Shown one piece after another: positions 44,496 through 45,770 of a DNA stretch of 64,000 bases. This stretch comes from Escherichia phage P896. Below the pieces are notes generated by a model. The model saw nothing but the letters and a program-made list of their open reading frames with translations. It did no database searches and was not told the origin of the DNA. Each line of letters starts with the position of its first letter. Positions within the stretch are counted from its first letter, which is position 1. The translations under genes and the position numbers were made by a program. The DNA lies in sequence record OL451225.1, one strand, 5' to 3'.

Positions 44496-44516
44496 CCCTT
44501 TATGGAAAATAAAAAA

Positions 44517-44534
44517 GGGACTCCGAAGAGTCCC
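44517..44534 (-). terminator. intrinsic terminator after the 53-aa gene
   Basis: GGGACTCcgaaGAGTCCC hairpin followed on the minus strand by TTTTTTATTTTCC. Confidence 0.6.
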
Positions 44535-44539
44535 TGAAC

Positions 44540-44701
44540 TTATGCTTTCGGCTTACCAAAGCAAGCTGCATCGGCACGCAATACCGCACGAGCACGAGCC
44601 TGAAGTTTATCAGTTACCTGATTGATTCGCTTGTTGGACGCACGCTTGTAACCAGCGCGTTTGGAGGAGCCATCAACAACTTTAACTTCTTTCTTAGCCA
44701 T
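44540..44701 (-). CDS. hypothetical small basic protein
   Basis: 53-codon ORF read by hand: MAKKEVKVVDGSSKRAGYKRASNKRINQVTDKLQARARAVLRADAACFGKPKA; weak RBS. Confidence 0.45.
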   Translation of the reverse strand: MAKKEVKVVDGSSKRAGYKRASNKRINQVTDKLQARARAVLRADAACFGKPKA

Positions 44702-44996
44702 ATTAAATTCTCTTTAAAATAGAATGCAGGACTTATTGACATTGCCTGCGCAAGCCCTCGAAGGGAACATTAGGTTTCGGATATTTAACGACAGGATAAC
44801 CATAAACCTCGTCATCATACCAACCACGACTTAGACAGATAACCTTTTTCTGACGCGTGATAGTACAAAATACATTCAAGAGGTACACCACAAAATTATC
44901 GGGGTCTAAAACTATAATGATTCGCAAATCATTAATCAGATAATTCGGTGGCTCCTCGATTTTCTAGCCGCACTAAGGTAGCGAATCACCTACAGC

Positions 44997-45251
44997 TTAC
45001 TTCAGGGTTACGACAAAATGGCGAACAGCTTTACGCGCAGCAGATGCCAGCGGCTTAGCAAATTTCAGTTCATCTTTTGCTTCGAGCACTGCGCGAAGGT
45101 CGGTTTGAATCGGGTTAAGATGTTTGAAATACTGCAGAATTTCCAGTGCTTCGGCTTCAACATCAATAGATGCGCCGTAGTTTTCGTGACCGTTATTCCA
45201 TGCAGTGCGTTGCAGTTCGAGAGCGTGTTGTAATTGTTTGTTTAAAGACAT
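44997..45251 (-). CDS. rIII: rIII lysis-inhibition accessory protein
   Basis: Start at MSLNKQLQHALELQRTAWNNGHENYGASIDVEAEALEIL with GAGG RBS; recognised as rIII-like; position before gene 31. Confidence 0.8.
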   Translation of the reverse strand: MSLNKQLQHALELQRTAWNNGHENYGASIDVEAEALEILQYFKHLNPIQTDLRAVLEAKDELKFAKPLASAARKAVRHFVVTLK

Positions 45252-45422
45252 TTTAGAAGCCTCAATATGAGGTGAATATTTGGTGGACACGTTCTTCTGA
45301 ATTTCACTTCCTTTCGGCAAGTCTCTCAGTTGTAGTCCACCGTTTAGGATTAGCTAACCCAATACACCAGCAAAGCTCTGTATGACATCAACCAATCCAT
45401 ATTATTATTTATAACGCTAATT

Positions 45423-45770
45423 TTACTTATAAAGACAAGGAACAGCTTTATAATGACAGGTCACAAATTTCTGCTTAACTTCTTTAGCCTGCTTAAGTCC
45501 CAGAGCAACCAGAGGATGCGGAACGTTTGCAATCTTGCCAACCGGAAGAGGAGTCAAATCACCTACTTCACAGAAACCTTCAGGAACATCCGGACCAACC
45601 GAAAATACTTCACACATCTCCGGGATTTCACCCTGATGGAGTTTTCCGATAACGATACCTGATGCCGTAGTTTCTTCATCACCAGCTTGCTTTGGCTCAG
45701 AAACCAAAATAATATATTCACCTACTGCTTTAATTGGTAATTCCATATTTAATCCATGTTGTTTGGTCAT
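45423..45770 (-). CDS. 31: co-chaperonin gp31 (GroES analogue)
   Basis: ...[23 protein letters not shown]...[14 protein letters not shown] recognised as T4 gp31-like; start may be the internal MELPIK (45746). Confidence 0.9.

Follow-up and report, generated by a model that had tools for sequence, protein, structure and literature searches.

The rIII-30.9 spacer of T4-type phages holds an unannotated, conserved set of RNA structures

The spacer between rIII and 30.9

The subject of this work is a spacer of 295 bp (positions 44702-44996) between the genes rIII and 30.9 in a stretch of 64,000 nucleotides of Escherichia phage P896 (OL451225.1), referred to below as the window. The phage is a VR7-like, T4-type member of the genus Gaprivervirus, and the region is 99.4% identical to VR7 (HM563683). 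The genes of the neighbourhood all lie on the minus strand, in the order cd, 31.2, 31.1, 31 (45423-45770), rIII, the spacer, 30.9 and 30.8. The coding sequence of rIII (44997-45251, 84 aa, ATG at 45251, stop codon ending at 44997) is followed across the spacer by gene 30.9 (44540-44701, AUG at 44699-44701), which encodes a basic 53-aa protein of unknown function (phrog_1427). An earlier, sequence-only reading of this DNA had noted about 300 bp without a convincing gene between rIII and the gene of a small basic protein, bounded by well-supported genes in tightly packed surroundings. The annotation of VR7 agrees, as it places rIII and 30.9 in the same way, and in that genome the spacer (296 bp) is the largest nearby intergenic space, the other gaps being 0-157 bp long. 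Far from being ordinary filler, the spacer holds a set of RNA structures that are strongly conserved, supported by covariation and present in T4 too, and that have gone unannotated.

The spacer matches 772 phage records, at one place in each, with Tequatrovirus (T4, T6, RB14), Mosigvirus, Dhakavirus and Gaprivervirus among them. Homologues of 30.9 were found in 998 phage records. The 114 nt upstream of the 30.9 start, i.e. the block formed by the M1, M3 and Shine-Dalgarno (SD) elements described below, are more conserved than the flanking coding sequence: they are 90-93% identical to T4, T6, F27, PhAPEC2, JS10 and phi25-307, as against 83-85% for rIII, 76-84% for gene 31 and 71-72% for 30.9 (90% in the Dhakavirus JS10) in the same comparisons. 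Nothing is annotated in the homologous gap of VR7, F27, PhAPEC2, JS10 and the RefSeq record of T4, where the equivalent is 244 bp long (130541-130784). No match to the spacer was found in 5,426 E. coli genomes, so a host origin is not supported. The covariance models of Rfam 15 gave no match within 44702-44996 at E values up to 10 and none in the leaders of six relatives at E values up to 1, and ARAGORN found no tRNA or tmRNA gene in the window or in five related loci. A literature search returned no publication on the rIII-30.9 spacer; a 2003 paper by Driukas and Nivinskas, which lay beyond the reach of the search, is said to deal with the expression of rIII and 30.9.

RNA domains of the spacer

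The spacer was aligned over 100 loci from GenBank phages, IMG/VR and metagenome contigs, which are cited by L numbers where they have to be told apart. Read in the direction of transcription (all coordinates in this section are on the minus strand), the RNA forms, one after another, domains that each close on their own: M2, B, M4, M1, M3a, M3b and a hairpin at the SD sequence of 30.9. The first of these, M2 (44964-44990), is a small hairpin with a UCGC/GCGG stem (44968-44984) and conserved loop and flanks (GGUGAUUCGCUACCUUAGUGCGGCUAG); its 4-bp stem is found in three compensatory versions, UCGC/GCGG, UCAC/GUGA and UUGC/GCAG. Domain B (44880-44957) is a long imperfect hairpin built from the helices GAGG/CCUC, GCCAC/GUGGU and GAAUUAUC/GAUAAUUU, with an apical hairpin of 8 bp and a UGCG loop (44915-44934). 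It is the only domain with a striking folding energy (minimum free energy (MFE) -20.9 kcal/mol, z -3.43, 1 of 200 shuffles folding as well). Over 22 distinct sequences 98.9% of the cells in B are paired and 7 of 25 pairs are changed on both sides; the covariation score was reached by none of 500 column shuffles, and registers slid against each other pair at most 62%. Natural deletions in ECO07P2 and L054 have removed the top of B and kept the base of its stem.

M4 (44825-44859) occupies a variable slot that in relatives holds nothing (T4) or a 135-nt element, E135. In the window it is a two-helix hairpin, CACG..CAGA-AAAAGGUUA-UCUG..CGUG, with limited covariation (two changes, CAGA/UCUG to CAGC/GCUG and CACG/CGUG to CAUG/CAUG) and a z score of -0.7. 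The stem of M1, S1 (44788-44815, AUGAC-G-AGG/CCU-GUCGU), closes a conserved 11-nt loop, UUUAUGGUUAU. A set of 31 distinct sequences drawn from at least 6 genera has 88% of the cells of this stem paired and 5 of the 8 pairs changed on both sides, one of them being AU in 15, UA in 14 and GC in 1 sequence; none of 500 shuffles reached the covariation score. A covariance model of M1 finds a single copy in the window (E 1e-19), the next match being at E 0.24. We therefore dropped the idea of an M1 regulon, i.e. M1-like hairpins ahead of other genes, and the model gives no score to M4 either; according to a pattern search and the covariance model, the modules are not repeated elsewhere in the window.

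M3a (44755-44765) is a mini-hairpin, CCCU-UCG-AGGG, followed by a conserved CUUG linker. The motif GUWCCC..GGGCUUG is present in nearly all leaders, and its variants CCUC..GAGG and CCCC..GGGG keep the pairing. M3b (44726-44749) is a GCAGG/CCUGC hairpin with a conserved 14-nt loop, CAAUGUCAAUAAGU, and a U-rich stretch behind it. Across the leaders its arms are found in nine distinct combinations, all of which pair (GCAGG/CCUGC, GAACU/AGUUC, GGGAG/CUCCC, GGUGG/CCACU and others; for two of the nine, from L064 and L097, the scoring used the anti-SD strand UUCUC in place of the true 3' arm). GGUGG/CCACU pairs through a terminal G:U, and the loop is 14-46 nt long. Predictions for many close relatives show a different pairing as an alternative, AGGGCUU/AAGUCCU. 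The last domain, the SD hairpin (44707-44725, AUUCU-AUUUUAAAG-AGAAU), overlaps with its 3' arm the weak SD sequence of 30.9, a GAG (44710-44712) 8 nt ahead of the AUG. MFE prediction on about 40 distinct 3' ends of leaders pairs the SD with an anti-SD strand in nearly all leader types, by differing sequences: AUUCU/AGAAU in the window, UUUUC/GAGAA in T4 and UCUCC/GGAAGA in the Klebsiella and Karamvirus types.

Taken over all domains, compensatory changes support B, M1 and M3b well, and M2 and M4 weakly. A fold of the whole leader showed no long-range covariation among the only 7 sequences of the same architecture. Invariant G:U pairs make up about 11-12% of the paired cells in B and M1 (e.g. 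G10:U81 and G16:U75 in B, U7:G33 in M1). On the opposite strand each of these would turn into an A-C mismatch, and selection has therefore acted on RNA of the rIII/30.9 sense. The sequence-only reading had offered a small RNA or a cis-acting site as possibilities and had proposed an analysis of RNA structure and covariance; the analysis found covariation of the kind described, in conserved mRNA-strand structures directly upstream of 30.9. An independent small RNA gene is not supported, as neither a promoter nor a terminator was found in the spacer.

A probable pseudoknot in M1

The loop of M1 contains a GGUU (44798-44801, minus strand, proposed pseudoknot strand S2a) that is complementary to the end of the tail following the stem. 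This tail (44773-44787, minus strand) consists of an A-rich single strand, UAAAUAUCCGA (proposed L3), and of AACC (44773-44776, proposed S2b). MAFFT lost the register over the third loop, which is variable in length, and for this reason the second helix was tested by an anchored comparison in which S2b was placed according to one rule throughout, namely at the last stretch of three or more A with a C or U behind it. Over 33 distinct sequences, 77% of the cells are paired, compared to at most 61% in slid registers, and permutation of the partners reaches the observed value in 30 of 5000 trials. Beyond the E. coli phages, leaders of the Klebsiella and Karamvirus types have a longer helix of 6-7 bp with compensatory changes (GUUGGUU/AACCAAC, GAAAGUU/AACUUUC, AGUAGUU/AACUACU, CAAGGUU/AAUCUUG). 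The proposed geometry is that of an H-type pseudoknot, with a first stem of 8 bp, a second loop of 2 nt and an A-rich third loop of 10-12 nt. We consider this fold of M1 likely on comparative grounds but not proven, because the second helix has only 4 bp in the window (GGUU/AACC) and RNAalifold prefers a competing pairing, AGGUUU/AAACCU, on close relatives.

Coding potential

The sequence-only reading had described an open reading frame (ORF) of the minus strand (44733-44927, 64 aa) as the only one in the spacer. It is the only one of at least 60 aa, but others of at least 25 aa exist on both strands: 37 aa from a GTG (44714-44827, minus), 36 aa from an ATG (44724-44834, plus), 28 aa (44857-44943, plus) and 42 aa overlapping the start of 30.9 (44614-44742, minus). 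The 64-aa frame begins with TTG, lacks an ATG and has no clear ribosome-binding site, as had been noticed before; it has no internal Met, and the 15 nt upstream of the TTG (TTATCTGATTAATGAT) contain no purine-rich SD sequence of the GGA, GAG or AGG type. It spans helices of B, M4, M1 and M3, and we judge it to be a chance ORF.

The frame is intact in the window and VR7 only. The TTG is shared by about 40 other homologous loci, where it leads to 20 different outcomes, 1-62 codons long and with unrelated C-termini. One extra A (GTTTTAAGACC) shifts the frame in most relatives, others have a 150-bp replacement in the middle of the gap, and the most conserved block has four single-base indels among ten phages. 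Neither the 64-aa ORF nor the alternative 37-aa frame has a match in Pfam or PHROG at E values up to 1. An intact frame with the same start, which would have spoken for a gene, is found elsewhere only in VR7, and the suggestion of a decayed gene is not supported, given a frame that is shared only with VR7, scattered 1-nt indels, the lack of a family match and substitutions that are compensatory in RNA helices. We rejected a coding reading on both strands, i.e. for the 64-aa TTG ORF, a 34-aa ATGATG ORF, the 36-aa ORF of the plus strand and a long form of 30.9. In the records of P8, UPEC01 and U115 one or two ORFs of 33-60 aa are annotated in the spacer, in differing frames.

Promoters and terminators

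A motif scan of the spacer gave no sigma-70-type promoter and no intrinsic terminator, no match to the MotA-type pattern GCTT-N12-16-TANNNT and no late promoter motif TATAAATA, in keeping with the earlier remark that a standard promoter could not be found. A candidate early promoter picked by eye at the junction of B and M4 (GTGTAC-N17-TACTAT) was dropped, as it is absent in T4. M3b is followed by AUUCUAUUUU; it is weak and atypical as a terminator (5 bp, 14-nt loop) and was not called by the terminator scan.

Signals are found on both sides of the spacer, all on the minus strand. An exact TATAAATA motif lies upstream of rIII (45406-45413) and is the presumed source of late transcripts across the spacer; the record of phage SA21RB marks the equivalent site as a late promoter. 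Farther upstream, a MotA-type match precedes gene 31 (45800-45777). A strong intrinsic terminator with an 8-bp stem (AGGGACUC-UUCG-GAGUCCCU and a U-run, 44516-44535) follows 30.9 directly, and immediately behind it lies a good early-type promoter for 30.8 (TTTACA-17-CATAAT, 44494-44466). As an observation in its own right, this pair of terminator and early promoter has the layout of the promoter-early stem-loop (PeSL) elements discussed below. We read the spacer as part of an mRNA because it has no internal promoter or terminator motif, because a late motif lies upstream of rIII and because a terminator stands directly after 30.9. It would be transcribed within the rIII-30.9 mRNA, from promoters upstream of rIII or gene 31, and the transcript would end at the terminator after 30.9.

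Domain order and the element E135 in related phages

The modules are present upstream of 30.9 in every locus in which a full-length 30.9 follows rIII, except the metagenomic L057 (no 30.9 ORF detected), and all of them are absent where another gene comes after rIII (Acinetobacter and similar, L069-L077). Their order differs between genera. In E. coli phages it is M2-B-(nothing, M4 or E135)-M1-M3, in Klebsiella Jiaodavirus M1-M2-E135-M3, and in Karamvirus and Winklervirus M3a-M1-(M2), with M3a directly after the stop codon of rIII; E135-M1-M3, M3-E135-M1 and M1-E135-M3 also occur. Permuted, non-circular orders are seen downstream of rIII in L024-L031 and L046-L079 (about 1750-2100 per locus), and M2 stands at differing positions of the leader in E. 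coli, Klebsiella, Karamvirus and Winklervirus phages. Cassettes are also replaced at identical flanks, as nothing, M4 or E135 is found between ..CCUCUUGAAUGU and AUGAUGAC.. Each domain closes on itself, and for this reason domains have been reordered, lost and exchanged from one phage genus to another with the others left intact.

E135, which is not present in the window, measures 135 nt (CGGCAAGUGCAUGCUACC...GUGUGCAACAGAUAAGAG; L003 1829-1963, minus strand, L005 931-1065, L010 604-738, L025 1571-1705 and L028 1569-1703). It was found in 404 phage records at 405 places, the extra one being a match of 24% coverage in the 404th record, so that there is essentially one copy per genome. Its carriers are T4-type phages of E. 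coli, Klebsiella, Enterobacter, Citrobacter, Kosakonia, Edwardsiella and Erwinia, at 80-100% identity. The consensus fold has 7 helices with 44 pairs, 25 of them with compensatory changes, and is closed by a P1 stem of its own; 97.7% of the cells are paired, and the observed value was reached by none of 500 shuffles on all five measures. E135 has no match in Rfam, and a scan of bacterial genomes yielded only chance matches to a 17-mer and nhmmer hits that cover the seed alone. It looks like an undescribed structured RNA.

In leaders of Karamvirus and Winklervirus the SD hairpin is immediately preceded by a stronger hairpin with CUUUUAUU or AAUUAUU behind it (L048 1827-1879, L078 1847-1888, L047 1825-1850), and in L048 the loop of this stronger hairpin contains the core sequence of M4. 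These elements are possibly leader terminators or attenuators.

Comparison with known regulatory elements

The gene 32 leader of T-even phages is an autoregulatory mRNA pseudoknot and operator, and by analogy the presumed function of the rIII-30.9 leader most resembles that of structured phage mRNA leaders of this kind, without being a member of the family. Both are mRNA leaders of the T4 family that are conserved among T-even phages, with an H-type pseudoknot (in our case a probable one) upstream of the start and an A/U-rich, weakly structured ribosome-binding region, and in both a control of translation by an RNA-binding protein is presumed. On the other hand, M1 has no sequence relationship to the gene 32 pseudoknot, lies about 75 nt away from the start codon, is one of 6-7 domains and has a second helix of 4 bp. 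The architecture of M1 also recalls the preQ1-I (RF00522) and SAM-II aptamers, in which, too, part of a hairpin loop pairs with a segment on the 3' side across an A-rich tail of 10-12 nt, within an mRNA leader with a possible expression platform. Here the differences are the lack of an Rfam match up to E 10, a 3' pseudoknot strand that is not the SD and the lack of a metabolic gene nearby. Early mRNAs of phage T7 are processed at intercistronic RNase III hairpins. Domain B might be compared to these, as it is a very well conserved, long imperfect intercistronic stem of about 17 bp with single-base loops and an 8-bp apical hairpin; it differs by a large asymmetric internal loop (4 nt versus 14-20 nt), and ECO07P2 and L054 keep the stem base only.

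PeSLs of T4-type phages are composite motifs of a terminator and an early promoter that are repeated around the genome (PMC2839356, PMC4122927). Like them, the modules are short conserved non-coding units of T4-type phages with stem-loops, found at boundaries of insertion, deletion and swapping. Unlike them, they have no promoter, are single copy, covary in the manner of RNA and lie inside a transcription unit. Identity with PeSL cassettes was rejected, as no promoter or terminator lies in the spacer, there is one place per record in 772 records and no more copies are found in the window. Cleavage sites of RegB/S1 consist of GGAG followed by RAYARAA in an unstructured context (PMC3014915); the GGAG at the base of B was discarded as such a site, since it is followed by CCACCGA (GGAGCCACCGA) and paired within GAGG/CCUC and GCCAC/GUGGU. 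The T4 RNAs rnaC and rnaD (species 1 and 2) are, like the modules, non-coding RNAs of a T4-type phage that derive from longer transcripts and have no known function. They are located in the tRNA cluster of T4, whereas an accumulation of stable RNA from the spacer is hypothetical, and kinship was rejected, as only chance matches of 7-10 nt were found.

Annotation of the flanking genes

In some records rIII is annotated with an N-terminal extension of 45 codons (129 aa; L002 1999-2388, L003 2100-2489). The counterpart in the window is a TTG-initiated frame of 107 aa (44997-45320), and the 84-aa form that starts with ATG is that of T4 and VR7. The product of 30.9 is 58 aa long in the RefSeq record of T4 (NC_000866, 130364-130540), while in T6 and one T4 variant (L004 997-1215, L007 741-959) a long gp30.9 of 72 aa is annotated, the start of which lies within the leader (ATGCCAATAAG, in the loop of M3b). 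The equivalent ATG of the window (44742) is out of frame with 30.9, and for this reason the extension is probably an annotation artefact. A sequence search with gp30.9 found no relative in the PDB. In PQ341120, ON210139, NC_054935, OR352939 and other records (hits H14, H46, H80, H224, H228, H231) 30.9 or the leader is labelled "1,4-alpha-glucan (glycogen) branching enzyme", which is implausible for a basic protein of 53-60 aa and looks like a propagated misannotation.

Discussion

The explanation that we favour, with a probability of roughly 0.55, is that the spacer is a transcribed, non-coding, cis-acting intercistronic leader that controls the expression of 30.9 and is shared with T4 and its relatives. 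We prefer a leader that limits the translation of 30.9 because the last hairpin pairs the SD, and equivalents are predicted in nearly all leader types. The leader structures would set the amount of 30.9 product that is made: the terminal hairpins would limit the access of ribosomes to 30.9, and the upstream domains might govern processing or stability, or dock a factor that acts in trans. Judged by its shape, which is that of an intercistronic RNase III-type hairpin, B might be a processing or stability element and M1 a docking site, for which the basic gp30.9 is one candidate factor, and a candidate only.

A number of points weigh against this explanation. While the folds and their strand can be read from the alignments, we infer transcription across the spacer, any regulatory effect on 30.9 and the protein partner. 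The hairpins other than B are thermodynamically modest (z -0.7 to -1.5), M2, with an unremarkable energy (z +0.8), being the weakest module; the whole 311-nt region is no more stable than its shuffles (z -0.24), and the SD hairpin of the window is weak, with 5 A-U-rich pairs. The short second helix of M1 and the pairing that competes with it belong here as well. Furthermore, two more distant loci, L073 and L074 (about 1725-1880), lack a leader altogether: a shorter 30.9-like ORF (MSARKGYKRKTNKRINQ...) begins a few bases downstream of the stop codon of rIII, and a terminator and an early promoter come behind it. Some lineages can thus dispense with the leader. (Judged by the downstream gene, these two loci are Proteus/Providencia-like.) Finally, a length of about 300 nt and a conservation above that of the genes exceed the needs of a simple translational operator, which suggests an additional function.

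Such a function could be exerted in trans. Stable RNA may be processed out of the mRNA, and the domains, once cut from it, might accumulate as trans-acting non-coding RNAs that form a ribonucleoprotein (RNP) with gp30.9 or act as a decoy or sponge for an RNA-binding or defence factor of the host, the regulation of 30.9 being secondary. We regard this as the most serious of the competing explanations, although clearly less probable than a cis-acting leader. It would account for a leader sequence conserved above its flanking genes, including the M1 loop (GGUUAUC), the M3b loop CAAUGUCAAUAAGU and the tails, and for self-contained domains that are swapped as cassettes between genera; in 404 relatives the M4 slot is filled by the seven-helix, P1-closed E135, which looks autonomous, and according to its RefSeq annotation T4 does produce stable small RNAs with no known function, rnaC and rnaD. 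Yet no promoter or terminator bounds an RNA gene here, there is no similarity to rnaC, rnaD or any Rfam family, and the module order is not fixed, so that the modules do not add up to a single integrated fold. About half as probable, in our view, is an attenuator or riboswitch-like device in which the M1 pseudoknot, or E135, would sense a protein or a small molecule and choose between M3a with M3b (termination and SD occlusion) and the AGGGCUU/AAGUCCU helix (read-through). The mutually exclusive pairing predicted in many relatives would suit such a switch, as would the run behind M3b (AUUCUAUUUU in the window, AUUUUCAUUU in T4), the clearer hairpin with CUUUUAUU just before the SD hairpin in L048 and L078 (Karamvirus, Winklervirus) and the likeness of the H-type architecture of M1, with its A-rich third loop, to preQ1-I and SAM-II aptamers. 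It is made doubtful by an M3b of only 5 bp with a 14-nt loop that the terminator scan passes over, by the loss of the alternative helix in L053 and L054 (central mismatch), by the lack of a riboswitch match in Rfam even at E values up to 10, and by neighbouring genes that suggest no ligand or partner.

The remaining explanations are less probable still. That the conserved blocks act as DNA, e.g. as a signal for recombination and cassette exchange, for protein binding, replication or packaging, with incidental RNA structures, seems improbable to us, even though cassettes (nothing, M4 or E135) are exchanged at identical flanks, the module order is permuted between genera and E. coli and Klebsiella phages, with rIII proteins that share about 76% identity with that of the window, carry copies of E135 that are 94-96% identical to each other. 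Near-identical segments amid diverged genes are known as the product of recombination hot spots such as PeSLs (PMC4122927), but the elements discussed here are single copy and without the promoter that defines a PeSL. Compensatory double changes keep the pairing in B, M1, M3b and E135, and the frequent G:U pairs fit one strand only, pointing to selection on single-stranded RNA of the mRNA sense. We give hardly any credit to the idea that the spacer encodes a small protein (the 64-aa TTG ORF or the annotated ORFs of 34-37 aa) or is a recently decayed gene. An uninterrupted frame of 64 codons does exist in the window and VR7, hypothetical proteins of 34-58 aa are annotated in the homologous gap of some GenBank records, and in T4 a pair of indels in M1 happens to restore a frame; but these two indels sit on opposite arms of the M1 stem, so that the hairpin explains them, the annotated small ORFs vary between records, and the TTG frame, which has no SD and no Pfam or PHROG match, is broken or different, with its 20 outcomes, in the about 40 other loci.

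Going beyond a cis-acting leader, it is tempting to speculate that the spacer consists of autonomous functional RNAs arrayed as cassettes (B, the pseudoknot of M1, M3, and E135 in 404 relatives), i.e. a new class of phage RNA that would bind a ligand, a host factor or gp30.9 (riboswitch-like, as an RNP or as an anti-defence decoy), is exchanged in the form of self-folding modules and was overlooked in T4. We hold this bolder proposal only tentatively, at about the same weight as the trans-acting RNAs considered above.

T4 is the reference lytic phage, and yet the equivalent 244 bp carry no feature in its RefSeq record. A non-coding segment that is more conserved than its neighbours, and in which compensatory change has maintained RNA helices in at least six genera, stands out as a strong candidate for unrecognised post-transcriptional control or for functional RNAs in T4-type phages. 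An RNA leader gives the orphan gene 30.9 a testable regulatory context, explains the inconsistent calls of small ORFs in many GenBank records, and leads on to E135, the larger RNA motif of 404 related phages. Among structured mRNA leaders it is unusual for its cassette-like, permutable domains, and such self-folding RNA domains, shuffled like cassettes, bear on the evolution of regulatory regions in phages.

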